Positions 12,508-26,431 of a DNA stretch of 64,000 bases are shown here, in pieces. This DNA comes from Thermoanaerobaculia bacterium (GTDB lineage Bacteria > Acidobacteriota > Thermoanaerobaculia > Multivoradales > Multivoraceae). The notes under the pieces are model-generated. The model ran no database searches and had not been told where the DNA came from. It was given only the letters and a program-made list of their open reading frames with translations. Where the stretch lies: positions 1,792,001 to 1,856,000 of the forward strand of contig OY761158.1 in assembly GCA_963664405.1 (NCBI GenBank), in the 5' to 3' direction. Within the stretch, counting starts at the first letter, position 1, and every line of letters begins with the position of its first letter. The position numbers and the translations under genes were made by a program.

Positions 12508-13518
12508 ATGAACGCACTCGACTCCTGGTTGAACAAGACTCAGGAAGAAGCGATCGAGCCCGAGCTGCCAATCTGCGATCCGCATCACCACCTGTGGGAT
12601 TACGAGGGTAGCCGCTACCTGCTGGATCAGCTCCTGGCCGACATCGGGGGCGGGCACAACGTCAGATCGACCGTCTTCGTCGAGTGCTCGTCGATGTACC
12701 GGAAGGACGGGCCCGCAGCCATGCGGCCGGTCGGAGAGACGGAGTTCGTGCAGGGGATCGCCGCGATGAGCGCGAGCGGCGGATACGGTGACTGTCGTGT
12801 CGCCGCCGGCATCGTGGGCTTCGCCGATCTGACTCTCGGAGCGGCCGTCGACGACGTCCTCGAGGCCCACCTGATCGCCGGACACGGACGCTTTCGCGGC
12901 ATCCGCCACGCCTGCAGCTGGCACGACAGCGACGAGATCCGCAATTCGCACACCAATCCGCCGCCCGCCCTGTTGATGGACAACAGCTTCAGACAGGGCG
13001 TCGCCCGTCTGGAGAAATACGATCTCAGCTTCGAAGCCTGGCTGTACCACACGCAGCTCGAAGAGCTCCTCGATCTCGCTCGCGCCTTTCCGGGTACGAG
13101 CATCATTCTCAACCATGTTGGCGGGCCACTGGGCATCGGTCCCCATCGCGGCAGGCAGAGCGAGATCTTCGACGGCTGGGCACGGAACATCGAAGCCCTC
13201 GCGGGCTGTCCCAACATCGTCGTCAAGCTCGGCGGAATCGCCATGCCACTCAATGGCTTCGACTGGCACAAGCGAGATCAGCCCCCCAGCTCGAAAGAGC
13301 TCGCGACCTCGCAGGCGCCCTACTACCTCCACTGCATCGAGCATTTCGGAGCGGAGCGCGCGATGTTCGAGAGCAACTTCCCCGTCGACCGGCGCTCGAC
13401 CAGCTATACCGTGCTGTGGAATGGCTTCAAGCGGGTCGCGGCGGGCGGGTCAGACGTGGAGAAGGCCGCCCTCTTCCACGACACCGCCGCCCGCATCTAC
13501 CGTATAGGAACTGGTTAG
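12508..13518 (+). CDS. Amidohydrolase_2 family protein
   Basis: EPELPICDPHHHLW, GRFRGIRH, ILNHVGGP, MFESNFPVD. Confidence 0.92.
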   Translation: MNALDSWLNKTQEEAIEPELPICDPHHHLWDYEGSRYLLDQLLADIGGGHNVRSTVFVECSSMYRKDGPAAMRPVGETEFVQGIAAMSASGGYGDCRVAAGIVGFADLTLGAAVDDVLEAHLIAGHGRFRGIRHACSWHDSDEIRNSHTNPPPALLMDNSFRQGVARLEKYDLSFEAWLYHTQLEELLDLARAFPGTSIILNHVGGPLGIGPHRGRQSEIFDGWARNIEALAGCPNIVVKLGGIAMPLNGFDWHKRDQPPSSKELATSQAPYYLHCIEHFGAERAMFESNFPVDRRSTSYTVLWNGFKRVAAGGSDVEKAALFHDTAARIYRIGTG

Positions 13519-14825
13519 TGCGCTTCCTCACGGCGCTCGCCTGCGCATTGCTCCTCACCTTTCCCGGGCTCAGCGAGCTGGCTGCCCAGGCCGAGCCGAT
13601 AGCCTTCCGCGGCGCTGAAGTTCACCCCATCTCTTCCCCTGTGATCGCACGCGGGACCGTGCTCATCGAGAACGGCAAGATCGTCGCTGTCGGGCCTGTC
13701 GACCAAATTCGCATCCCGCGAGACACGAAAGTCGTAGACCTCGAAGGCAAGGTCATCCTCCCCGGTTTGGTGGACACCCACTCCCACATCGGCAGTGTCT
13801 CCGGCGGCGACAGCTCGGCGGCTCTCCACCCAGAGGTCCGTACCCTCGACGGCATCGACATCCGCAGCGACTCCTTCAACCGGGCTCGTGTCGGCGGCAT
13901 AACCACCGTCAACGTGATGTCCGGCTCCGGGCATCTGATGAGCGGCCAGACCACCTACCTCAAACTCCGTAGGGGAGCAACGAAGATCGAGGACTGGCTG
14001 TTCTGCGAGGACCCGCTCACCGAGGTGTGCGGGGGCCTGAAGATGGCAAACGGCACCAACTCCATGCGCCAGCCACCCTTCCCTGGCACACGAGGAAAGT
14101 CAGCAGCCCTGGTTCGCGCTCTCTTTCTCGATGCACAGGCCTACCGCGACAAGCTCGAGGCGGCAGAGTCGGATCCCGACAAAGACCCCCCCGAGCGGGA
14201 TCTAGGAATGGAGACTCTGGTGGAGGTGCTCGAAGGCAAGCGGATCGTGCAGCACCACACCCATCGCCACGACGATGTTGCAACCGTGATCCGCATCGCC
14301 GCAGAGTTCGGCTACACCCCCGTGCTCCACCACGTGAGCGACGCCTGGAAGGTCGCTGACGAGATCGCCGCCGCCGGCCTGGGAGTCTCGCTGACCGTCG
14401 TCGATGCGCCAGGCGGCAAGGAAGAGGCGCTCGGAGCCGACTTTCGATCGGCAGCCGCGCTGGAAGAAGCCGGCGCCGACGTGGCCTTCAACACCGACGA
14501 CTCGATTCTCGACTCGCGTCTCCACACTCGCAGCGCGGCGCTGGCCGTGCGCTACGGCATGTCCCGCGAGAAGGCACTGGAGGGGCTCACCCTGGCCGGC
14601 GCACGCATGCTCGGACTCGAGCACAGAGTCGGTTCGCTGGAGCCTGGAAAAGACGCCGACCTGGTGATCTTTTCCGGGGAGCCATTGAGTGTCTACACCC
14701 ATGTTCTCGAGACCTGGGTCGAAGGAGAGAAGGTCTATGAGCGCAGCAACCCAGAGCACAAAAAGTGGGCCGTCGGCGGCTACGGTGTCTACCGCTCTGG
14801 GAGCGAGGGCAGCGATGAGCACTAG
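13518..14825 (+). CDS. Secreted amidohydrolase (intact metal site)
   Basis: GTG start overlaps the upstream TAG; signal peptide; PGLVDTHSH, LKMANG.N, HTHRHDD, NTD, GSLEPGKDAD. Its stop TAG is the MITE terminal CTAG. Confidence 0.9.
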   Translation: MRFLTALACALLLTFPGLSELAAQAEPIAFRGAEVHPISSPVIARGTVLIENGKIVAVGPVDQIRIPRDTKVVDLEGKVILPGLVDTHSHIGSVSGGDSSAALHPEVRTLDGIDIRSDSFNRARVGGITTVNVMSGSGHLMSGQTTYLKLRRGATKIEDWLFCEDPLTEVCGGLKMANGTNSMRQPPFPGTRGKSAALVRALFLDAQAYRDKLEAAESDPDKDPPERDLGMETLVEVLEGKRIVQHHTHRHDDVATVIRIAAEFGYTPVLHHVSDAWKVADEIAAAGLGVSLTVVDAPGGKEEALGADFRSAAALEEAGADVAFNTDDSILDSRLHTRSAALAVRYGMSREKALEGLTLAGARMLGLEHRVGSLEPGKDADLVIFSGEPLSVYTHVLETWVEGEKVYERSNPEHKKWAVGGYGVYRSGSEGSDEH

Positions 14826-16239
14826 ACCAGCGTTTCCAAAGTTCGAGCTGCATAGCTCGAGCTCATTCTGTTCGCTGGCCAGGCGCGCCGACGCAGGCAT
14901 ATTGGGCAATATGTCGAGGAGGCGTAACGCCGGCAGCGGGCAGAAGGGGCCGAGATATGTGCGCGAACTCTGGAAACGCTGGTCTAGATGTTCCGCGAAG
15001 GCACTCCGACCGGCCGGTTGGGCCATTGCGCTTCTCCTCGCAGGCGCCGTGGCGACGCCGGCGCAAATCGCGGTTCGTGGCGACGTCGTGCACACCATGG
15101 CGGGGGATGCACTGCGCCCGGGTGTGGTTGTGGCGCGTGATGGCAAGATCGAATGGGTAGGTCCGGCGGCAAGCGCCGACATTCCGGAAGGGTGGGAGGT
15201 CCTCGAGGCCGCGGTCGTGACCCCAGGGCTCATCGACGCTCATTCGGTGGTGGGCCTGGCCGGGATCTACAACCAGGGCACAGCGACCCAGGGCTCGAGC
15301 CGGGTGCAGGACCAGGACCAGATCGAGATCTCTGAGCCCATTCAGCCTGAGCTGCGCGCTGTCGATGCCTATAACGCTCGCGAACAGCTCGTCGCCTGGC
15401 TGCGCTCCTTCGGAGTCACCACCCTCCACACCGGTCACGGCCCCGGAGCCTTGGTCAGTGGGCAGACAATGATCGTCAAGACCCGCGGCGACACCGTCGA
15501 GGAAGCCGTGATCGAGCCCTTCGCGGCGGTCGCATTCACTCTCGGCTCTTCCATCAGCTCCCGCTACAAGAGCCCTGGCACCAAAGCCAAAGGGGTGGCG
15601 ATGCTACGAGCCGAGCTCCTCAAGGCACAGCGCTACCTGGAAAAAGTCGAAGACGCCGACGTCGACAAGCGGCCCGATCGCGATCTTCGACTCGAGGCTC
15701 TCGGCGCGGTTCTCGAAGGCGAAGTGCCGGCTCTCATCACCGCCCAGGCCGCAACCGAGATCATGACCGCTCTGCGCCTGCAACAGGAGTTCGGCTTCGA
15801 TCTCATTCTCGACGGCGCGGCCGAAGCCTCACTGGTGATCGCAGACATCCGAGCGGCGGGAGCTCCCGTGCTGTTGCACCCGCCGATGATGAGGGCCTCA
15901 GGGGAGGCGATCAGCGCATCCCGCGAGACCGGCGCCGCGCTGCGGGACGCCGGTATCCTCTTCGCCTTTCAGGGCGGCTACGAGTCCTATGTGCCGAAGA
16001 CTCGGGTGGTCCTTTGGGAGGCGGCCATCGCTGCGGCGAACGGCCTGGGCTTCGACGATGCTCTCACCGCCATCAGCATCGACGCGGCGCGAGTTCTCGG
16101 CATAGACGATCGAGTCGGATCTCTGGAAGTCGGCAAGGACGCCGACCTCGTCCTCTACGACGGCGATCCTTTCGAGTACACCAGCCACGTCTGCGTCGTA
16201 CTCATCGAGGGAGAGATCGTCAGCGACGAGTGCGTCTGA
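14815..16239 (+). CDS. Secreted amidohydrolase paralogue (degenerate metal ligands) with an in-frame MITE at the N-terminus
   Basis: ATG 14815 after GAGGG; PGLIDAHSVVG, GSLEVGKDAD. Removing the 162-bp element gives MSTRCSAKALRPAGWAIALLLAGAVATPAQ. Confidence 0.85.
   Translation: MSTRPAFPKFELHSSSSFCSLARRADAGILGNMSRRRNAGSGQKGPRYVRELWKRWSRCSAKALRPAGWAIALLLAGAVATPAQIAVRGDVVHTMAGDALRPGVVVARDGKIEWVGPAASADIPEGWEVLEAAVVTPGLIDAHSVVGLAGIYNQGTATQGSSRVQDQDQIEISEPIQPELRAVDAYNAREQLVAWLRSFGVTTLHTGHGPGALVSGQTMIVKTRGDTVEEAVIEPFAAVAFTLGSSISSRYKSPGTKAKGVAMLRAELLKAQRYLEKVEDADVDKRPDRDLRLEALGAVLEGEVPALITAQAATEIMTALRLQQEFGFDLILDGAAEASLVIADIRAAGAPVLLHPPMMRASGEAISASRETGAALRDAGILFAFQGGYESYVPKTRVVLWEAAIAAANGLGFDDALTAISIDAARVLGIDDRVGSLEVGKDADLVLYDGDPFEYTSHVCVVLIEGEIVSDECV
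14822..14987 (+). mobile_element. Palindromic MITE family A, copy 2 (162 bp, in frame within a CDS)
   Basis: CTAG at 14822 and 14984, ~24-bp TIRs, no stop codon in the host frame. Confidence 0.92.
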
Positions 16240-16261
16240 GGCGAAACAGGAACGGTCCACT

Positions 16262-18892
16262 TTGATGGGAGGAATCCGATTGTACCGCCACCGGCGGAGC
16301 CCCAGGCTCGAAGCCGTCGTCGCTTCAACCAAGGCGCTGGCGATCGTCTTCCTCCTGCTCGGCTGCGAAGCCGAAGAAGCAGCCGCGCCGATCTCGTCGA
16401 GCACGCTGGCCGCTCGCTTCGAGCAGTTCGTCGAGTCCGGAGCGGCACAACCCGCGACTTCCGCCGCCGCGCTACTGGAGCGTCTCGGCACCTTGTGGGA
16501 GCTCTCGAACGCATTGGCCCTCGAGGGTGCGCCGATCCCGGTCGACTACCCCGCGCACGTGAAGAGAAACTTCCTCGATCTGAACAAGGCCGGCGCAGAG
16601 CCCGATCTGGAGATCTTGGAGAGAGCGCGCGACATCATCGACCGCTACTCGCGAGAGCTAGCGCTCAAGGCGAAGAACCCGAACGCGATAGGCACCCTCA
16701 CGCTGACGCCGCCCGGTCCGTTCCGGGTCGGCGAGCTAGTCACACTCAGCCAGACTTACACGGTCGGCGACATACCCATGAGGCCCGGGGGAGGCATCAT
16801 CCTAACCACCAATCGCGGAATCGCGGGCCAAGCCGACGATCCCTCGGCGGAGAACCATGTAAGTGTCACCAGTTCACGGCCCGAGGCGATTCTCGAGCTC
16901 GCGGAGCCCTGGGGAAACTGGCAGAGCTTCATCAATAGGACCACTCTCTCCTGGCGCTTGCGCGACGTCAACCTCGAGCCTGGCGACACCGTCACCATCA
17001 CCTACGGCACCACCCTAGGCGGTGGCGGCGGAGCGCGTCTGCAGCGATGGTCGAACGACCGAGTCATCTTCCCGGTACACATAGACCTCGAGGGAAAGGG
17101 CGAGCTATTGACGCCTCACTGGCCCTCGGTGGAGGTCAGAGGGGCGCGGGAGATCTCGCACGTCAACGTCATCGTTCCATCGCGAGTCGCCGGCAACGAA
17201 CCTTTCGACATCGCGGTGCGCAGCGAAGACAACAACAAAAACCTATCCAGCGCCACGACGCCCCGTTATCGCGTTCTGCTCGAAGGGAAGGCGCTGCGCA
17301 CCATTCCCGCTGGGAGTGGAGCCCTCACCGTACTCGAAGACATCGTTCTCGAGCGGCCCGGCGTATACCGCTTCGAGGTGCGCTCAGACGACCGCACTCT
17401 GCAAGCCCTGAGTAATCCCATCGTGGTCAGCGCCGACCCCGAGCTGCGCGTGTACTGGGGGGAGACTCACGGCCACTCCGGATTCGCCGAAGGTCAGGGC
17501 TCGCCGGACGGTTATTACCGCTTCGGACGCGACGTTGCTCGACTCGACTTCGCCTCCCTCTCGGAGCATGATCTGTGGCTGGACGATGGCGAGTGGCTGG
17601 CGCTGAAGGAGGCCGTCACTACCTACCTCGAGCCCGGGCGATTCACCGCGATCCTCGGCTACGAGTGGACGGCCTCCAACCCCGACGGGGGGCATCACAA
17701 TGTCTTCTTTTCCGACACTGCCGACCGCAAGAGAGTCCCTGTCCAAGAGACCTTAAGCCCGGAGGAGCTCTATCAGCGCCTCAGAGCGGAGAACGATCCA
17801 GAGGACGTGCTGATCATTCCGCATGCCCATCAGTCAGCGGATTGGCGCAAGAGCGATGTGGAGATGGAGCGTCTCGCTGAGATCCAATCGGGACACGGGA
17901 CCTTCGAGTACTTCGGCAACAAGTACCTGCAGCAGGGCTGGGAGGTCGGCTTCATCGGTGCCTCGGACAACCATAACGGGCATCCAGGCTACTCCGGGAC
18001 CGGTAACCGGCAGCTCGGCGGTCTGGCGGCGGTGCTTGCTCCGCAGAACACACCCCAGGCGATCTTCCAAGCGCTCCGCGATCGCGCCACCTACGCCACC
18101 ACCGGAGAGCGCATCGTGCTCGAAGCGACGCTGAACGGAAGCCGCATGGGGACTCGCGTGCCGATGGCCCTCGAGCGCCGCCTCGAGTGCCGAGTCCACG
18201 GCACAGCTCCGATCGACACCATCGACGTCATCAAGAACGGCAACGTCGTGTTCACCCGTCGCTTCCTCGAGGCGCAGCTACGCTCTTCCGCCTTCCTCCA
18301 GATCAAGGTCGAGTCGTCGGCCGAAGTTTTCACCGGCCACAAGAACCCACGCCCGGCACGCTTATGGCGAGGAAGTGTGAGCGTCAAAGGTGCGGATCTG
18401 GTCGACTTCAAGAGACCGTGGTACTTCAACCCCGGCACCTTCTCGCTCGGTCGCGACGAGGCAGACACTAACCGTCTAGAGCTGAGCACGAACACTCGCG
18501 GCCGTGGCAAGGGGATTCTGCTCGAGCTCAGCGGCGCCAACCGCGACACTACGATCGTCGTCGAGTGGGACGAGTCCAGAGAGATCGTGCCGAGAGACGG
18601 TACGACTCCAGAGATGATGGACCGGGAGCCTCAGACTCTGCCCGCGGGCACGGCGAGCTTCCGCCTCGGCGACCTCGAGGGTGGCCTCGGCCGCAAGGAG
18701 ATCAAGGTGGTCGAGAATGTAGACTCCATCCAACTCCAGCTGGTGCCGGCCGACGCCGAGCTCGATCAGGAGTTCGAGTTCGTCGACAAGGAGGATCTGG
18801 CGCCAGGTGACTACTACTATCTGCGCGTCACCCAGGTGGATGGGTCGATGGCCTGGAGTAGTCCCTGGTGGGTCGGCAGTCGGCCGCGATAG
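16262..18892 (+). CDS. DUF3604 (PHP-like) domain lipoprotein
   Basis: LLLGC lipobox-like segment; VYWGETHGHS, SEHD, LGYEWT, GHHNV, IPHAH, GASDNH, TYATTGERI, YYYLRVTQ.DG.MAWSSP.W. Confidence 0.85.
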   Translation: MMGGIRLYRHRRSPRLEAVVASTKALAIVFLLLGCEAEEAAAPISSSTLAARFEQFVESGAAQPATSAAALLERLGTLWELSNALALEGAPIPVDYPAHVKRNFLDLNKAGAEPDLEILERARDIIDRYSRELALKAKNPNAIGTLTLTPPGPFRVGELVTLSQTYTVGDIPMRPGGGIILTTNRGIAGQADDPSAENHVSVTSSRPEAILELAEPWGNWQSFINRTTLSWRLRDVNLEPGDTVTITYGTTLGGGGGARLQRWSNDRVIFPVHIDLEGKGELLTPHWPSVEVRGAREISHVNVIVPSRVAGNEPFDIAVRSEDNNKNLSSATTPRYRVLLEGKALRTIPAGSGALTVLEDIVLERPGVYRFEVRSDDRTLQALSNPIVVSADPELRVYWGETHGHSGFAEGQGSPDGYYRFGRDVARLDFASLSEHDLWLDDGEWLALKEAVTTYLEPGRFTAILGYEWTASNPDGGHHNVFFSDTADRKRVPVQETLSPEELYQRLRAENDPEDVLIIPHAHQSADWRKSDVEMERLAEIQSGHGTFEYFGNKYLQQGWEVGFIGASDNHNGHPGYSGTGNRQLGGLAAVLAPQNTPQAIFQALRDRATYATTGERIVLEATLNGSRMGTRVPMALERRLECRVHGTAPIDTIDVIKNGNVVFTRRFLEAQLRSSAFLQIKVESSAEVFTGHKNPRPARLWRGSVSVKGADLVDFKRPWYFNPGTFSLGRDEADTNRLELSTNTRGRGKGILLELSGANRDTTIVVEWDESREIVPRDGTTPEMMDREPQTLPAGTASFRLGDLEGGLGRKEIKVVENVDSIQLQLVPADAELDQEFEFVDKEDLAPGDYYYLRVTQVDGSMAWSSPWWVGSRPR

Positions 18893-18895
18893 GCA

Positions 18896-20299
18896 CTATC
18901 GTGGCCGGCTTTCGTCCCTGGTGAACTCAACCAGGGCTTCCATGGCGGCCGGGTTGAGGATCAGGTCGAAGTGGTCTCCTCGAACGTAGAGCGGCTCTCC
19001 GACGAGAGCTTCCTTCTCCTCGGGAGAAAGCCAGAGCTGACTGTCGACCGTCGCATGACCGTCGCCGAGCCCCGCCACTAGGTTGCGCAGTCTAGAGCTG
19101 TTCTTGACCGCGCTGTCACTCGCAAACAAGGTCTCCCATGCGCCCTTGCGCCCCCGCTGGAGGACGGCCCGGTCCGGCGTCAGCCGGTCCTGATCGTTCT
19201 GGATGAGGTAGTAGCGAGGCGGATTCGTCCAGCCGACATTTCGCTCGAGCAAGGCCTGAAAGCGCTTGGCTCGATCGAGGGCCCAGCGCAGGTACTCGAC
19301 CCTCTCGTCCTCCTCGCCGAAGAGCCCGGGTGCTCCGCTTCTCGCCAACCGTTCACGAGCCTTGGAGCTGAAGACGGACCACCCGTAGCGCAACCAGCTA
19401 TCTGCGTCATAGAGATCGACGGCAACACTCGCCCCATCGCCATCGACGAAAAGATCGCTACGGTAGCGGGGCAGATCCTGGAACAGCGAGGGGAAGGTGA
19501 AGAGTGTCTCAGGCTCCCATTTTCTTCCGACCATTGCCAAATAGTTGCGGCCGCGATCGAGCTCACGGAGGTTGCGGATGCTGCCACCGTTGGCGGTTCC
19601 GACGAGGATCAAGCGGCCGACTTCGAGCCCGCTGCGCGGCGGCGTATCTTGCGACTCCGCCTCTTCCAAAGCAGCTCCTCCGTACTTCGCCAGATAGCGG
19701 CACACATGGCCACCACTGCTCTGGCAGATGAGGGTGACCCTCAGCGTGTCTTGCGACCGTGCCCGGCGCAGCGCGTCGAGCCCTTCTGCCAATCGAGCGG
19801 CCGCATAGGCGTGATCCTGCCGCCAGTCCCAGGGAAAGAGAAAAAAGTCTTCGTGCGCTTTGGGGTCGCGCAGGTCGCCCCGGCGATAGCCCTCGCCTTC
19901 CAGAAGCCGGATGATAGGACCGTAGACAGGCTTGTGAATGACTCCCGCCAGCCGCAGCTCCTCGAGAACCGAGGAAGCTTCGACTCGAGAAGACGGGGAG
20001 ATGCGCAAGCCAAGAGGGCGGGCAAGAACATAGCCGCCATCGCGGGGTCTGAGGAGATTGGTGCCAACACCCCAGATGACGTTTCCTGTCGACTTCTCCT
20101 CGAGAACGCTGCCGGTCACCCCTGGCACGATAATCACCGGCGTACGCGTGGAGACTGCGCCGCCGAAGACGGCGGAGGCAAACAGAAAGGCCGCCGGCAG
20201 AACGGCACGCAGCCGACGGCATATCGGGGGTCGCTTCAGGAGATCCTCGACAAATGACACAGGGTCTCTCGTCGCCGTATGGCGCAACGCCGAGCACAA
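18896..20299 (-). CDS. Secreted alpha/beta hydrolase (LCAT/lipase-like)
   Basis: PVIIVPGVTGS.L, FPWDWRQD, CQSSGG nucleophile elbow, GDGHAT, DHFDL. Start probably downstream of the ORF start. Confidence 0.8.
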   Translation of the reverse strand: MCSALRHTATRDPVSFVEDLLKRPPICRRLRAVLPAAFLFASAVFGGAVSTRTPVIIVPGVTGSVLEEKSTGNVIWGVGTNLLRPRDGGYVLARPLGLRISPSSRVEASSVLEELRLAGVIHKPVYGPIIRLLEGEGYRRGDLRDPKAHEDFFLFPWDWRQDHAYAAARLAEGLDALRRARSQDTLRVTLICQSSGGHVCRYLAKYGGAALEEAESQDTPPRSGLEVGRLILVGTANGGSIRNLRELDRGRNYLAMVGRKWEPETLFTFPSLFQDLPRYRSDLFVDGDGASVAVDLYDADSWLRYGWSVFSSKARERLARSGAPGLFGEEDERVEYLRWALDRAKRFQALLERNVGWTNPPRYYLIQNDQDRLTPDRAVLQRGRKGAWETLFASDSAVKNSSRLRNLVAGLGDGHATVDSQLWLSPEEKEALVGEPLYVRGDHFDLILNPAAMEALVEFTRDESRPR

Positions 20300-20388
20300 T
20301 ATCTCAGTCGGGGCTCAGACACAGGATCCGAGCTCCTCCGCGTCGACTACAATCCTGTAGGCACTCGCTCCGTAGGAGGACTTCGCCA

Positions 20389-21726
20389 ATGCAACCGATT
20401 CATCAGCAAGCCGTCCACAGAATCGTCAACCTGATACCGGAACATCGCCGGCGGCCGCTCGACCGAACGCGGGAGGAGATCGACACCCTCCTGTTCTCGA
20501 ACATCGAGGAGCTGTCATCCATGGAGGGCTCGTTCTCGCTGGTGGCTCGAAGCGGAGTGAGAGTGAGGCTTGCCCGCAGCCTGGACCGCCCGATGCGCTA
20601 CTTCCTCGCCAAAGAGGCGGCAGGGCCCTACTTGATCGTCGCCGAGCGCATCGACCAGATCCAGCAGCAACTCACGGCAGACGGTCACGATTGGCAGTTT
20701 CACCCGACCTATACCCGCATGGTTCCGGCGCACCACATTACCGAGATCCTCCTTGTCGGTTGCCCCGACCCGAGTCCCGAATATCTTCGCTTCTTCGCCC
20801 CGGAAAAAGACACGCTCCCCGCGGACCCGCGGGAGATCGGACGACGCTACGTCACCGCGCTCTACGAGGAGGTCCGTCGGTGGGTAACGGGCCTCCCCAC
20901 CGAGGAGCCGGTCGGAGTCCTTTTCTCAGGCGGCATAGACAGTGGCGCCGTGCTGCTATGCGCTTACCGAGCTCTGCTCGCTTCCGGCGCGAGCGCGGCT
21001 CGCCTCAAGGCTTTCACTCTTTCTGTCGAGGGCGGAGGTGAGGACCTCGCACAGGCTCGCTCTTTTCTCGCGCGGACCGGCCTCGACTATCTCGGTGAGC
21101 CGGTCGAGGTACCCGCCGAGGCTATCGACCCGCTTCGAGCCGTCGAAATGATCGAGGACTACAAGCCTCTCGACGTCGAGTGCGCCGCGGTCAATATCGC
21201 TCTTCTCGAAGCCCTCCGAAAGCGCTATCCACAATGGCGCTTTCTGCTCGATGGCGACGGCGGCGACGAGAACCTCAAGGACTACCCGATCGAAGACAAC
21301 AAGGAGCTGACGATTCGAAGCGTGGTCTCGAACTCGATGCTGTATCAGGAGGGCTGGGGAGTCCAAGCGCTCAAGCACTCCCTGACCTACTCCGGTGGTC
21401 TCTCGCGAGGTTATGTGCGGACCTACGCTCCTCTTCGCCACTTTGGTTTCGAGGGCTTCAGCCCCTTCACTCGTCCGGCGGTGGTGCGGGTGGCCGAAGG
21501 GATCCCCTTTGCGGAGCTGACCGCGGGAGAGGTCGACGTTCTCTATCGTCTCAAGGGCGAGGTTCTCTCTCAGGGAATCGAGGAAGTGCTCGAGATCGAG
21601 ATGCCGGTCTACCCCAAAAGGCGCTTCCAAGAGGGGGCTACCGCCGATGCCGTCTTCAAGGCGAGTTTCGACGTCGACCCCGAGATCTATCGCCGCCACC
21701 TGCTCTCCCGCTATCAAGCCTTGTGA
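20389..21726 (+). CDS. Asparagine-synthetase-related ATP-dependent ligase lacking the N-terminal catalytic Cys
   Basis: AGGAGG RBS; PP-loop LFSGGIDSG, GDGGDEN, SPF, KRRFQ; truncated Ntn-like region (EGSFSLV, LARSLDRPMRYF). Confidence 0.88.
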   Translation: MQPIHQQAVHRIVNLIPEHRRRPLDRTREEIDTLLFSNIEELSSMEGSFSLVARSGVRVRLARSLDRPMRYFLAKEAAGPYLIVAERIDQIQQQLTADGHDWQFHPTYTRMVPAHHITEILLVGCPDPSPEYLRFFAPEKDTLPADPREIGRRYVTALYEEVRRWVTGLPTEEPVGVLFSGGIDSGAVLLCAYRALLASGASAARLKAFTLSVEGGGEDLAQARSFLARTGLDYLGEPVEVPAEAIDPLRAVEMIEDYKPLDVECAAVNIALLEALRKRYPQWRFLLDGDGGDENLKDYPIEDNKELTIRSVVSNSMLYQEGWGVQALKHSLTYSGGLSRGYVRTYAPLRHFGFEGFSPFTRPAVVRVAEGIPFAELTAGEVDVLYRLKGEVLSQGIEEVLEIEMPVYPKRRFQEGATADAVFKASFDVDPEIYRRHLLSRYQAL

Positions 21727-22682
21727 ATCCGGGGCTGTCACCGAAGCGAGTCCGCGCCCTTCGGCCCGCCCACTCGGCTCCCGACCCCTGGAAGATTCTC
21801 GGTACCGTCGAGGAACAGGAGCGCGGTCTCAGCGGAGCCCTGAGGTCGGCCGCGACTCTCTTCCTCGCCGGAGCGGAGTGTCCCTTTAGTTGCGTGTTCT
21901 GCGACCTGTGGCGCCATACGACTCCGTCATCGACGCCGGTCGGAGCCATTCCCGCTCAGATCCGCCAGGGCCTCGATAAGCTCAGCCGACCACCGCACAC
22001 TCTCAAGCTCTATAACGCAAGCAACTTCTTCGACGCAAGAGCGGTCCCGGTCGAGGACGACGAGGCAATCCTCGAGCTGCTCCAGGCGCCAAGACGTGTG
22101 GTGGTGGAGTGCCATCCACGCTTCGTCGAAGAGCGCGCTCTTCGCTACACAGCAAGGCTCTCCGGAACCCTCCAGGTCGCGCTGGGACTCGAGACCGTCC
22201 ACCCGCGGGCCCTGCGGCACCTTGGGAAGGGTGCGTCAATCGCGGACTTTCGACGAGCCGCGGCTCTTCTGTTGGCTGCGGGGGCCGAAGTCCGAGTTTT
22301 TCTCCTCATCGGAGCTCCGTTCATTCCAGCTGCGGAGCTCGAGAGCTCAGTCGTGGAGTCCGCCCGTTTCGCGCGCGACCTCGGCGCTCGACACATCTCG
22401 CTCATTCCTCTGCGAGGAGGCAATGGCGCGACGGAAGAGCTCGCAAGACGGGACGAGTACACGCCTCCCACTCTGCAACAGGTTGAGGGCTGCTACGACG
22501 CCTGCATGCGCCAGATCGAAGGACCGGTCCTCAGCCTTGACCTTTGGGATCTCGACCAGCTCTCCCACTGCCCCCATTGCTATGAGCGCCGGCGAGCACG
22601 CCTGCTGAGCATGAACCTCAGCGGCAGGCAAGAGGCAGATGTTGTTTGCGGCTGCGAAGATTCGATCGGAGTCGAGCTTTGA
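21723..22682 (+). CDS. Radical SAM protein, RaSEA/TIGR01210-like
   Basis: GTGA overlap; CPFSCVFC, KLYNASNFFD, VECHP, LGLETV, C-terminal CPHC...CGC. Confidence 0.85.
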   Translation: MNPGLSPKRVRALRPAHSAPDPWKILGTVEEQERGLSGALRSAATLFLAGAECPFSCVFCDLWRHTTPSSTPVGAIPAQIRQGLDKLSRPPHTLKLYNASNFFDARAVPVEDDEAILELLQAPRRVVVECHPRFVEERALRYTARLSGTLQVALGLETVHPRALRHLGKGASIADFRRAAALLLAAGAEVRVFLLIGAPFIPAAELESSVVESARFARDLGARHISLIPLRGGNGATEELARRDEYTPPTLQQVEGCYDACMRQIEGPVLSLDLWDLDQLSHCPHCYERRRARLLSMNLSGRQEADVVCGCEDSIGVEL

Positions 22683-24250
22683 AGGCCACCGTCGCCATCA
22701 TCGGGTCCGGCTTTGCCGGCTCGATCCTCGGCCGCATCCTCGCCGACCAGGGTCACCGTGTGCTGCTCTTCGAGCGGCAACGCCACCCGCGCTTCGCCTT
22801 GGGCGAATCTTCGACCCCTCTGGCGGCGCTCTCACTCGAACGCCTCAGCCGCGACTGGCAGCTCCGCGATCTCGACGCCCTCGCCGCCTATGGACGCTGG
22901 AACAAGGAGCTCGGCCATCTGCGTAAAGGCCTGAAGCGGGGCTTCACCTTCTACCAGCACACCCGTGGGAGCCCCTACACAAACGACGAGCATGACTGTC
23001 ATCGACTCCTTGTCGCGGCGAGCCCCAACCAAGAGATCGCCGACTGCCACTGGCTTCGAGCAGATGTCGACGCACACTTGGCGTCAGCCGCGGCAGCAGC
23101 GGGCGCGGAGCTCCTCGAAGAGGTCGAGATCACCGGGGTCGAGGCTCGAGGCGAAGGATTCAAACTGAGCTGGACAACTCGCGGCGGCCGGCTTCACACT
23201 GAAACCGCAAGTCATCTAATTGACGGCAGCGGTCGATCGGGAGTGCTCGGGACTACGTTTCCAGAAGCTAGAAGCACCCGGGTCGGGCTCGAGACAAGCC
23301 TCGTCGCCGGTCATTTCGGGGACGTCGCTCCCTTCCCGGACGTCGCTCGCGCCGCCGCAGCCTGCGTCGAGGATGGCCCTTATCCAGACGAGGCGGCCGC
23401 CGTCCATCATCTACTCGGAGACAGCTGGCTCTATCTTCTACGCTTCGACGACGGAACCAGTTCGATCGGCCTGGTTCGAGCTGCAACTCAGCCGCACGCG
23501 CCGGCGGTCCCTCCCGAAACCCTCCTCAGACGCGCGCTGGAGCCGTTCCCGACGCTGCACCAAGCCTTTGATCAGGCAAGACCAACAAGCCCAGTCGTAC
23601 ACTTGAACGTGCTCCCCTATCGCCGACTGAAGGCGGGCGGCTCGAGCTGGGCGCTCCTGCCTCACAGCTACGCTTTCTACGACCCTCTCTTCTCGACCGG
23701 GATCGCCTGGAGCCTGATCGCAGTCGAGCGCCTAGCCGGATGGGGACTGGAGCTCCGCGAGCACGGGAGGTCGGCTGCCGCGCAGACCCTCCGCCGCTAC
23801 TGCCACCTGATCGAGAAAGAAGCGGATCATCTCGAGTCTCTGATCACCACGGCTTGGCGAGCCCTACCCTTGTTCGACGACTTCGTGGAAGTCTGTTACC
23901 TGTACTTTGCCGCCGCAAGCTTCTCCGAGCTCCGTCAACGTCTCTGCCCCGAGCAGGAGCCGCTCGGAGGTTGGTGCTGGGACGGATTCCTCGGAACCAG
24001 TGATCCCTTGGTTTCGAAATGGCCCGAGCAAGTCTCGGCCTGGCTCCGCGAGTCACCGGCGACAGCTCCAGGGCGTCGAGTGCAGCCGCGACAACTCCGA
24101 GAGCTCATCGAGCCACGAAACCTAATCGGGCTCGGCGATCCGGCGATCGGGCGGCGAATCCCGCTCGATCTCGGATTGCTACGCCAATCGGCATCCAAAC
24201 TGGGTCTTCAGAAGACCACGATGGGCGAGCGCCTCAGCCGACTCCGATGA
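22679..24250 (+). CDS. FAD-dependent halogenase-like oxidoreductase
   Basis: TTGA overlap; GSGFAG, HPRFALGES, LKRGFTF, R...D..L, WLYLLRF, FYDPLFSTG. Confidence 0.85.
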   Translation: MKATVAIIGSGFAGSILGRILADQGHRVLLFERQRHPRFALGESSTPLAALSLERLSRDWQLRDLDALAAYGRWNKELGHLRKGLKRGFTFYQHTRGSPYTNDEHDCHRLLVAASPNQEIADCHWLRADVDAHLASAAAAAGAELLEEVEITGVEARGEGFKLSWTTRGGRLHTETASHLIDGSGRSGVLGTTFPEARSTRVGLETSLVAGHFGDVAPFPDVARAAAACVEDGPYPDEAAAVHHLLGDSWLYLLRFDDGTSSIGLVRAATQPHAPAVPPETLLRRALEPFPTLHQAFDQARPTSPVVHLNVLPYRRLKAGGSSWALLPHSYAFYDPLFSTGIAWSLIAVERLAGWGLELREHGRSAAAQTLRRYCHLIEKEADHLESLITTAWRALPLFDDFVEVCYLYFAAASFSELRQRLCPEQEPLGGWCWDGFLGTSDPLVSKWPEQVSAWLRESPATAPGRRVQPRQLRELIEPRNLIGLGDPAIGRRIPLDLGLLRQSASKLGLQKTTMGERLSRLR

Positions 24251-24289: not shown

Positions 24290-25450
24290 CTAGCGATTCG
24301 TGCCCCGAAGCCGTCGCGACACCAGGCCGATGTCACGGTCGATCCGACGCCACTCCGAGCTGGTTGCCCGCGCCTCGATGACGATGGGGATTCTACGTTC
24401 AGCATCACAAGCATCGATGAGCCGGGCAAGGTGGTCCTCGAGGTAGGACAGATCAATGGGCTCCTCGGGGACCTGACGAAGAGAGGTCGGGATCTGCGCC
24501 ATCGAGGTCCGTAAGTCTGTGCAGACGGCGTCGACGTTCAACCCTCTCGATCCGCCACCCAACTGCAGCACCGAATGCCTCATCGGCGCCAGCGTGTCCC
24601 GGTAGAGATCCAACCACTGGGTCCAGCGAGCCATGCGGTTTCGACTTGCCCCCTGCTGAGCCTTCTCCACCTTCTGGCGCACAATCTTCGCCTGGTCCGC
24701 TTGGGCTTGGCGCACCTGGGATCCGACCACGGCTGGGTCGCGATCGAGTCGGTGAAGCCTGGCTCTATGAAGTAGGCCATGATCATCCCGCTTTTCGAGG
24801 TTGCCGGCCGAATTGATTACATAGTAATGACCGAGCTCGTCGCCGCCCTTCTCCTCCCAACGCAGCTCATTACCTACCCGGGTCGCTGCGATCTCGATCG
24901 CGAAGCTACCGCCCTCGCGATATAAGCGGTCCATGATGAGCTCGTCCCCATCTTGATAGACCGTAACCACCGAGGCAAAGGAAGTGTCGTCGATCCAAGT
25001 GCCGACGAGGTCTCTACTCTTGCGCGCCTGAGCGACCAGCTCGCGCTCCTCCAACCTCGTCAACCCGAGCAGGGTGACCATGAGCTCCGGCCGGTACTCG
25101 GCAGTGGCCCATGCACCCTCGCCCGGCTGCGTTTCGCTGAGATAGTAAGTAATGAAGGACCGGTCGCATCCCGATGCCTCACGCTCACGAAGCTCGTCCG
25201 ATGCCGCCTCCAACACATCTGTTGGGACCTTATAGGCGAGCCGGATGTCGGGGCTGCACCGCAGCGTAGACGGTCGATCGGCGTTGATTACTTCGAGCTC
25301 GAGGTCGCGAGGGACCTGGGGCCGCACCGGCCGTGGCGCCTCTGCTTCCTGGCAGCCACTGCCCACCACCAAGACAAGAAGCAGGAGACAGCCTTCAGCC
25401 CACCACCTGCGGGCTATCGGCGACCTCCTGTTAGACTCGATGACCTCCAC
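24290..25450 (-). CDS. Hypothetical lipoprotein
   Basis: Hydrophobic stretch ending VGSGC; 386 aa; no recognised domain. Confidence 0.7.
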   Translation of the reverse strand: MEVIESNRRSPIARRWWAEGCLLLLVLVVGSGCQEAEAPRPVRPQVPRDLELEVINADRPSTLRCSPDIRLAYKVPTDVLEAASDELREREASGCDRSFITYYLSETQPGEGAWATAEYRPELMVTLLGLTRLEERELVAQARKSRDLVGTWIDDTSFASVVTVYQDGDELIMDRLYREGGSFAIEIAATRVGNELRWEEKGGDELGHYYVINSAGNLEKRDDHGLLHRARLHRLDRDPAVVGSQVRQAQADQAKIVRQKVEKAQQGASRNRMARWTQWLDLYRDTLAPMRHSVLQLGGGSRGLNVDAVCTDLRTSMAQIPTSLRQVPEEPIDLSYLEDHLARLIDACDAERRIPIVIEARATSSEWRRIDRDIGLVSRRLRGTNR

Positions 25451-25534: not shown

Positions 25535-26431
25535 TCAACCGGAACAGGAGCCCGGCGATCGAGCGACGCACTCGAGCACGTTCATTGGGCCCATTCGATC
25601 GATCAGGGCTCGCTCATCATCGCTACGAGCCATCAGTGATCCCGCAAATCCAAGTGCGTTGACACCCAAAGTGTCTACGGCGGCGCTCGAGCGGGGAACG
25701 AGAAGCATCCACTCGCGTGTGAAGAGCAAGTTATGCGGGCCCGCGCGCCCGTGCGGCTGCGCCACCATCTCTCGAAGCAGACGGCGGTAGGCCTCGAATA
25801 GCGAAGCCGGCACTGCATCCGAGTCGCCAACCTCCGGCGGCGAAATCCTCTGTAGACGGTGGGCAAAAGGTAGCGCCGCACAGGTCGAGCTCCCGGTCTC
25901 GAGAGAAGACTCGAGCAACGCAGCCACCGGAACCGAGGAAGTGCCCTCGGCGAGTGGCAGCGGTACGACCTGGAGATGCTTATGTTGCTGGCTCGCGCCG
26001 GAGCCGGCTCCGGAGTTGTAGAAGACGAGTCCATTCATGCCCTCGAGACAGCTCTGCCCGGCTGCGAAGTCCTCGCGAGTGAGGAGCTCTTCCTGGTCCT
26101 CGAAGTCACGAGTCACCAGGAGAATGTGCCTATCGAGGACGCAATACTTGTTGAGTAGGCACACATGCGTAGGCGAGATATCGCCGATCAGGAGCCCTTC
26201 TTCGTAGGGAGGAAGAAACGGATTTCTTCGCTCCTGACTAGGAACAGCCGACAACTCCACCCCAGCTCGCGGCGCGACCAGTCTGCGAACAATGAAGTCG
26301 ACACCACGGTCATGGAGAATCTCGACCTCCGTCGGCAGCGGTTGAAGAAGACCGGTCGAGAGGGCTCGCCGCGATCTCTCGGTCACGAGGCTCCAGAGCT
26401 CCGACGGCCGCTGGGATCGATCTTGCATCAT
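25535..26431 (-). CDS. ATP adenylyltransferase / Ap4A phosphorylase (Apa2-like)
   Basis: NPFLP.E, LLNKY, FYNSGAGSGASQQHKHLQ, NLLFT.EWM.LVPR, NALGFAG. Confidence 0.9.
   Translation of the reverse strand: MMQDRSQRPSELWSLVTERSRRALSTGLLQPLPTEVEILHDRGVDFIVRRLVAPRAGVELSAVPSQERRNPFLPPYEEGLLIGDISPTHVCLLNKYCVLDRHILLVTRDFEDQEELLTREDFAAGQSCLEGMNGLVFYNSGAGSGASQQHKHLQVVPLPLAEGTSSVPVAALLESSLETGSSTCAALPFAHRLQRISPPEVGDSDAVPASLFEAYRRLLREMVAQPHGRAGPHNLLFTREWMLLVPRSSAAVDTLGVNALGFAGSLMARSDDERALIDRMGPMNVLECVARSPGSCSG

Follow-up and report, generated by a model that had tools for sequence, protein, structure and literature searches.

RaSEA and MnmL/YtqA are radical S-adenosylmethionine (SAM) enzymes which both cleave a C-N bond, removing an N-alkyl group from a modified transfer RNA (tRNA) base. 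Beta-lactam synthetase and the carbapenam synthetase CarA carry a catalytic Tyr-Glu dyad and close a ring intramolecularly. In the flavin-dependent halogenase PltM, a Lys next to the flavin has a catalytic role. QhpD, which acts with the halogenase-fold flavoprotein QhpG in cysteine tryptophylquinone biogenesis, is a SPASM-type radical SAM enzyme. The partner of RaSEA in the archaeosine synthase of Euryarchaeota is ArcS, which attaches lysine to preQ0 according to excerpts of PMC11298593; excerpts of a second source describe the radical SAM enzyme YhcC as standing in for MnmC (10.64898/2026.05.18.725915). Reported here is a three-gene operon at positions 20389-24250 (+ strand) of a 64,000 nucleotide (nt) stretch from a Thermoanaerobaculia bacterium of the phylum Acidobacteriota (GenBank GCA_963664405.1, contig OY761158.1, positions 1,792,001 to 1,856,000). 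This whole stretch is termed the window, and all coordinates are window coordinates. The operon is uncharacterised but widely conserved, and it is built from divergent branches of three known enzyme superfamilies. Its elements are as follows.

20373..20378, + strand: Shine-Dalgarno-like AGGAGG, read directly, 10 nt 5′ of the gene 1 ATG at 20389
20389..21726, + strand: gene 1, predicted AsnB/beta-lactam-synthetase-like ATP-dependent amide ligase, 445 amino acids (aa), no N-terminal Cys nucleophile
21723..22682, + strand: gene 2, radical SAM protein, RaSEA-like but under the family cut-off, 319 aa, GTG start in a GTGA overlap with gene 1
22679..24250, + strand: gene 3, flavin-dependent halogenase-fold flavoprotein, 523 aa, TTG start in a TTGA overlap with gene 2

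Layout and spread of the operon

One AGGAGG serves all three open reading frames. An earlier reading of this DNA made from the letters alone (the sequence-only reading) had described the GTGA and TTGA overlaps behind a single ribosome-binding site; these are seen directly in the sequence, and every motif which that reading named is present in the translations of genes 1-3. All three are genuine genes with translational coupling, and inheritance or loss affects them as one unit. Gaps of 89 nt and 39 nt separate gene 1 from a divergent upstream open reading frame and gene 3 from a convergent downstream one.

The phylum was represented by an even sample of 301 genomes, and the counts take in an unpublished genome (G024). 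The radical SAM gene is carried by 27 of the 301. All three genes are found adjacent and in the same order in 23 of the 27 carriers (tblastn on the loci), many of these loci showing a start codon that fits the same kind of 4-base overlap, and in one carrier the contig ends before gene 1. Three carriers, G119, G246 and G011, have genes 1 and 2 only. When gene 3 was searched for directly, G119 (100% complete) and G011 proved to have no relative, and the single relative in G246 lies elsewhere in that genome and has 28% identity. Thus the ligase and radical SAM genes form the core, and gene 3 is a frequent addition. The proposal of a three-enzyme unit stands with regard to co-localisation, but the flavoprotein is not obligatory.

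Two irregular loci may be recorded here. In G011 genes 1 and 2 are separated by an inserted toxin-antitoxin pair, a Phd/YefM antitoxin with a PIN toxin (L111:3787-4472). In G005 (contig C86, L026/L028) the radical SAM match is in two pieces, query positions 6-146 and 149-303; a frameshift or a faulty assembly could account for the break.

A pattern scan of species-representative genomes gave at least 567 relatives of gene 1, and the best 80 of these, all from other species and with 54-65% identity, were used for locus analysis. They come from Acidobacteriota, Gemmatimonadota, Verrucomicrobiota and Planctomycetota, with one Myxococcota record. When the open reading frames of these 80 loci are clustered, gene 1 is present in 76, gene 2 in 75 and gene 3 in 66, while any further family is present in 37 or fewer. 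The genes are co-localised in other genomes, a check which the sequence-only reading had proposed, and its description of the operon as an orphan is borne out: across the 80 loci and the carrier genomes no other gene is universally linked to the three.

More distant relatives are also found. A search of 1.84 billion cluster representatives yielded 651 relatives of gene 1 at E ≤ 1e-3 and 162 at E ≤ 1e-30, some of which are full-length subfamilies of 33-47% identity. Named distant relatives are from Pirellulales, Gemmataceae, Rhodothermaceae, Fodinibius and Armatimonadota, and one homologue is labelled Nanoarchaeota. A metagenome scan with the distant-subfamily alignment gave only five weak loci (26-31% identity). 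In a quick tree of gene 1, sequences group mostly by phylum, yet at least four Acidobacteriota and at least two Gemmatimonadota groups lie on well-supported branches. The splitting of these groups indicates some transfer between phyla. A core function in minimal genomes was considered and dropped, as the one homologue labelled Berkelbacteria is a singleton whose relatives, in Planctomycetota, Rhodothermaceae and Armatimonadota, are from large-genome phyla.

The sequence-only reading had suggested that the operon would represent an undescribed pathway. Searches of full-text literature, from which subscription journals were mostly outside coverage, gave no description of the three-gene arrangement, including those aimed at it or at TIGR01210, and no characterised pathway matched. 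The one paper brought up by the broadest search, on ammosamide (PMC12424672), deals in its excerpts with a gene cluster unrelated to this one.

The three proteins and their closest relatives

The three family assignments of the sequence-only reading hold: PF00733 for gene 1, TIGR01210 as the best match of gene 2, and halogenases as the relatives of gene 3. In each case the protein lies at some distance from the named family. The segments of gene 1 referred to below are these.

20572..20772, + strand: N-terminal conserved blocks ARSLDRPMRYFLAK (residues 62-75), QFHPTYTRMVPAHH (residues 103-116) and GCPDP (residues 124-128), from a 50-sequence alignment
20926..20943, + strand: PP-loop SGGIDS, the ATP pyrophosphatase motif, residues 180-185
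21250..21273, + strand: DGDGGDEN, a loop of the synthetase domain, residues 288-295

The search with PF00733 (Asn_synthase) that had been suggested gives a match of 47 bits for gene 1, limited to residues 171-306. With TIGR01536, the equivalog model of glutamine-hydrolysing AsnB, the score is 35.6 bits against a cut-off of 267.1. A true AsnB is present elsewhere in the same genome (424.8 bits), therefore gene 1 is not the housekeeping AsnB, and its role as a replacement for that enzyme is ruled out. The claim that gene 1 is without an N-terminal Cys, the nucleophile of the class II amidotransferase domain in AsnB, is confirmed. The protein begins MQPIHQQ, an in-frame upstream ATG at 20254 also gives no Cys start, and in the 50-sequence alignment no residue is invariant before G47. 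The nucleotide site is retained. S180, G181, G182, D184 and S185 of the PP-loop are invariant in the 50 sequences, as are DGDGGDEN and the segment K410-RRFQ-G.

The N-terminal half is conserved in its own right. The blocks ARSLDRPMRYFLAK, QFHPxYTRMVPAHH and GCPDP are invariant or nearly so in the alignment, and the first two are also retained in the subfamilies of 33-47% identity. Conservation of this strength means that the N-terminal domain is no dead relic. An AlphaFold model of gene 1 built from the 50-sequence alignment has a predicted local distance difference test (pLDDT) score of 86.5. The best Foldseek match of the model is beta-lactam synthetase 1mc1 (E = 4e-13, template modelling score 0.58-0.63), aligned over the full length with 445-467 columns, followed by human and E. 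coli asparagine synthetase, CarA and TsnB9. The full-length alignment indicates that gene 1 keeps both domains of the AsnB fold. Thus gene 1 resembles beta-lactam synthetase and CarA in having a two-domain AsnB fold without the Cys nucleophile and in retaining the PP-loop. It differs from them in sequence (13-19% identity), in the absence of the partner biosynthetic genes, and in the strong conservation of its N-terminal domain.

Six long proteins appeared to be fused forms of gene 1, and none was accepted as informative. From the printed sequences, P0124 is an over-extended open reading frame, and in P0127 and P0129 a frameshift lets the frame read on into gene 2 or gene 3. P0126 (795 aa, from one metagenomic contig) is the gene 1 reading frame continuing into an adjacent DUF6807 gene whose product carries a signal peptide of its own. 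P0125 and P0128 were assessed by their Pfam matches alone.

Gene 2 contains KLYNASNFFD, VECHP and GLET in addition to two cysteine motifs.

21879..21902, + strand: CxxxCxxC (C53, C57, C60), the radical SAM [4Fe-4S] motif, as in RaSEA; invariant in 53 sequences
22569..22655, + strand: C-terminal Cys4 (C283-x2-C286 and C309-x-C311), specific to this family; three Cys invariant and one conserved at ≥90% in 53 sequences

The best NCBIfam match of gene 2 is RaSEA (TIGR01210) at 74.4 bits against a cut-off of 212.15, followed by MnmL/YtqA and Elp3. All 53 members of the family match TIGR01210 and 23 of the 53 match MnmL/YtqA. As a control, the TIGR01210 cut-off is exceeded in 3 of 14 control genomes. 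The RaSEA-like assignment is thus right as to the nearest curated family, but since the score falls under the cut-off the protein is RaSEA-like and not a RaSEA equivalog. The TIGR01210 match stops at residue 254 and the C-terminal Cys4 lies beyond the matched stretch; the four Cys are a predicted metal or auxiliary-cluster site. A structural model of gene 2 (pLDDT 95) has MgmA and Elp3 as its nearest solved folds (E about 1e-8), and no chain titled RaSEA is among its sequence or fold matches.

The operon shares with ArcS-RaSEA the pairing of a nitrogen-attaching enzyme with a small radical SAM protein, RaSEA being the best curated match throughout the family, and both systems could supply nitrogen without glutamine. 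The differences are considerable. The operon is bacterial, its ATP-dependent ligase is of the AsnB fold and is not ArcS, a third gene for a flavoprotein is usual, the gene 2 score is 74 against 212 bits, and the C-terminal Cys4 region is unmatched by the RaSEA model. A RaSEA would work with ArcS on preQ0-Lys tRNA and be encoded beside it, but in the carriers inspected gene 2 is coupled to an AsnB-fold ligase gene upstream; the genome was not searched for ArcS. MnmL/YtqA/YhcC is the second-best family and offers, in the excerpts of the source cited above for YhcC, a case of a radical SAM enzyme standing in for a flavoenzyme in mnm5s2U synthesis, but the match is weak (20.9 bits, cut-off 180) and there is no MnmE/G context.

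Gene 3 displays GSGFAG at residues 9-14, which is the GxGxxG motif of flavin adenine dinucleotide binding, and also GES and DPLFSTG. Two further segments are compared with solved halogenases.

22928..22945, + strand: GLKRGF with K86, aligned with GIKLGF of PltM and GQKSNF of CtcP; ≥95% conserved in 68 sequences
23426..23443, + strand: WLYLLR, residues 250-255, aligned with WLWVIP of PltM; family consensus W[LM]YxLRF in 68 sequences

The closest solved relatives are the phenol halogenase PltM (6bzt, E = 9e-33 over residues 5-393) and the tetracycline halogenase CtcP (7xgb, E = 1e-25). These and RadH, also among the nearest, act on free phenolic substrates. The likeness to PltM and CtcP extends over residues 5-393 and includes GxGxxG, GxKxxF with its Lys, and FxDPLFSxG. 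In place of the WxWxIP of halogenases, however, gene 3 carries W[LM]YxLRF, and no flavin reductase is linked to it. The WLYLLR substitution had been singled out in the sequence-only reading and proves to be family-wide. In the PF04820 (Trp_halogenase) search suggested there, gene 3 scores 20.3 bits, just under the gathering score of 21, and only over its N-terminal stretch. With the Lys conserved but WxWxIP absent, gene 3 may be either a hydroxylase or a halogenase. Its best NCBIfam match is QhpG (NF049967), 63.9 bits over residues 127-346 against a cut-off of 240. The N-terminus also gives weak matches to MnmC models, in the dinucleotide-binding part only.

What the operon may act on

The reading favoured here, which is held tentatively and at somewhat less than an even chance, is that the operon specifies by analogy a self-contained and horizontally mobile pathway of three enzymes whose substrate would be a small molecule that the locus does not encode. 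Gene 1, which keeps the ATP-pyrophosphatase site of the asparagine synthetase/beta-lactam synthetase fold, would activate a carboxylate as its adenylate. As the glutaminase nucleophile is absent, the amine that it then joins on would have a source other than glutamine: an amino-acid donor, or an amino group of the molecule itself. Gene 2 would then use a 5′-deoxyadenosyl radical to cleave or rearrange the new C-N linkage, a chemistry suggested by RaSEA and MnmL/YtqA, its only recognisable relatives, being N-dealkylating enzymes. Together the two could install an amide or amidine nitrogen independently of glutamine, following the logic of ArcS-RaSEA. Gene 3, as an enzyme of the PltM/CtcP type, might hydroxylate or halogenate an electron-rich ring of the product. 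The lysine donor, the halogenation and the substrate class put forward in the sequence-only reading are likewise steps that we infer.

A small molecule is preferred to a peptide because no small open reading frame is conserved, the spread is patchy (27 of 301 genomes), and phyla are mixed in the quick tree of gene 1. Among open reading frames of 20-95 aa within 700 nt of the three genes, none is conserved across phyla in 76 loci, and the operon itself leaves only its two short flanks. The absence of a precursor peptide, which had been remarked on earlier, is thereby upheld. Nor is there the precursor and leader protease beside an AsnB-like cyclase that would characterise a lasso peptide or other ribosomally synthesised and post-translationally modified peptide.

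Several points weigh against a small-molecule pathway. Every mechanistic step is an analogy. The gene 2 score is one third of what the RaSEA model requires, and the substrate of its closest relatives is tRNA, not a small molecule. No exporter or transporter, regulator, flavin reductase or precursor-supply gene is conserved with the three genes in the loci examined. Between phyla gene 1 retains 53-65% identity, a high value for an enzyme of accessory metabolism, and a conserved substrate of macromolecular kind would agree with this too. Finally QhpG, the best NCBIfam match of gene 3, is described in excerpts of PMC7876137 as a halogenase-fold monooxygenase that acts on a peptide or protein with a radical SAM partner.

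This last point leads to the likeliest of the rivals, which we nevertheless regard as unlikely: that the operon matures a protein- or peptide-derived cofactor or modification by the logic of QhpD and QhpG, the polypeptide being encoded elsewhere. The substrate might be an exported FG-GAP/ASPIC propeller, and gene 1 would amidate or cyclise a side-chain or C-terminal carboxylate. The operon shares with QhpD-QhpG a radical SAM protein and a halogenase-fold flavoprotein. Yet gene 3 is far under the QhpG cut-off, gene 2 is not of the SPASM type, no QhpC-like peptide or dehydrogenase genes are present, no linked QhpC or QhpD was found, and no precursor gene is conserved beside the operon.

The genomic neighbours also bear on this rival. 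Open reading frames of the FG-GAP/ASPIC (CRTAC1-like) type are found in 37 of the best 80 loci, in Gemmatimonadota, Acidobacteriaceae and Verrucomicrobiota. A gene for an RnfD-like membrane protein often goes with them (14 of the best 80 loci), and in loci of Gemmatimonadaceae TonB-receptor and SusD-like genes do so as well. Of the 26 other carrier genomes, at least 8 have an ASPIC domain no more than 8 kilobases from the radical SAM gene, where uniform placement would give 1.14. Counted by family, which is fairer because the genomes are not independent, the link is seen in at least 4 of 12 against 1.09 expected (P about 0.016); both counts are lower bounds from the 150 of 331 matches listed. 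In G011 the position right after the radical SAM gene, usually that of gene 3, is taken by an FG-GAP gene on the same strand whose start resembles a signal peptide. On the other side, adjoining FG-GAP genes are mostly on the opposite strand, and FG-GAP proteins are large and exported, which is awkward for cytoplasmic enzymes. The genome of the window has nine ASPIC genes, all far from the operon, and families of its own class show no ASPIC link among the matches listed (150 of 331). These distributions are suggestive of an association that is limited to certain lineages and does not define the operon.

As a separate observation, an FG-GAP/ASPIC sub-cluster with the gene of a 299-aa RnfD/NqrB-like membrane protein in its midst is found repeatedly, in convergent orientation to the three genes, in Acidobacteriaceae and Gemmatimonadaceae, which are of two phyla. 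Sites are found among L029-L108, e.g. L074:13661-16353, L096:11869-16410 and L044:15082-17191, and also in G099, G209, G259 and G289. To our knowledge no function has been described for this arrangement, and we know of no function for the FG-GAP/ASPIC (CRTAC1-like) family in bacteria. Excerpts of PMC12758564 place FG-GAP/CRTAC1 genes in hydrazine-synthase-like clusters, and those excerpts hold no mention of radical SAM or asparagine.

The small-molecule pathway can itself be extended to take in these neighbours, although the extended form is rather unlikely. Genes 1 and 2 would then form a module, not recognised before, that installs nitrogen without glutamine: an amino acid would be ligated to a carboxylate, and radical N-dealkylation would take off its carbon skeleton. 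The outcome would be a new small molecule or cofactor, hydroxylated or halogenated, which the neighbouring exported FG-GAP/ASPIC propellers would use outside the cytoplasm.

Modification of a tRNA or ribosomal RNA nucleoside appears decidedly unlikely. Here gene 1 would adenylate a carboxyl-bearing base or add an amino acid, gene 2 would trim the adduct in the manner of RaSEA or MnmL, and gene 3 would oxidise as in MnmC. All recognisable relatives of gene 2 (RaSEA, MnmL/YtqA, Elp3) are radical SAM enzymes of tRNA modification, gene 1 is highly conserved across phyla, and gene 3 has its weak MnmC matches; the latter, however, are limited to the dinucleotide-binding N-terminus. No known RNA-binding domain such as PUA or THUMP is detected by Pfam in genes 1-3, and the family median isoelectric points of 5.9, 6.8 and 6.5, respectively, give no pointer to nucleic-acid binding. 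The presence of the radical SAM gene in only 27 of 301 genomes and the single, isolated homologue with a Berkelbacteria (reduced-genome) label, related to those of large-genome phyla, also speak against it.

A lactam-forming natural-product pathway, with gene 1 closing a ring intramolecularly and genes 2 and 3 tailoring the product, is very unlikely: beta-lactam synthetase is the best full-length fold match, CarA is among the matches, and gene 1 like both of them keeps an N-terminal domain without the Cys nucleophile, but at 13-19% identity, with no linked precursor gene (CEAS or CarB equivalent), resistance or export gene in the loci examined, and with an N-terminal domain too strongly conserved to look vestigial.

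Surroundings in the window and significance

The window is uniform in composition (about 63% G+C). A search with Rfam over the whole window gave 0 matches, and a scan for promoters and terminators showed nothing above shuffled expectation. The genes around the operon are as follows.

13416-16239: two amidohydrolase genes
16262-18892, + strand: 876-aa protein with DUF3604 and a CehA/McbA-type metallohydrolase domain (70.8 bits, under the cut-off of 80), following the amidohydrolase genes
18896-20299, − strand: 467-aa open reading frame, no match in Pfam or NCBIfam, flanking the operon upstream
24290-25450, − strand: 386-aa open reading frame, no match in Pfam or NCBIfam, flanking the operon downstream
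25535-26431, − strand: Ap4A phosphorylase/ATP adenylyltransferase, an ordinary gene (Ap4A_phos_N, 196 bits)

None of these, nor a further neighbour encoding an NHL propeller, is conserved with the three genes, and they were rejected as members of the operon. The amidohydrolase and DUF3604/CehA genes (13416-18892) are possibly a separate degradative cluster.

The three genes are carried by hundreds of mostly uncultured soil, sediment and marine species of Acidobacteriota, Gemmatimonadota, Verrucomicrobiota and Planctomycetota, with relatives labelled Armatimonadota and Rhodothermaceae, and an operon of only three genes is directly testable by heterologous expression. The link with FG-GAP/ASPIC genes, if real, would be a first handle on a large protein family of unknown function. 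If a logic like that of ArcS-RaSEA is true, the operon would be the first bacterial, non-tRNA use of ligation of an amine donor followed by its radical cutting-off, and a function would be assigned to a large unnamed branch of the asparagine-synthetase fold.

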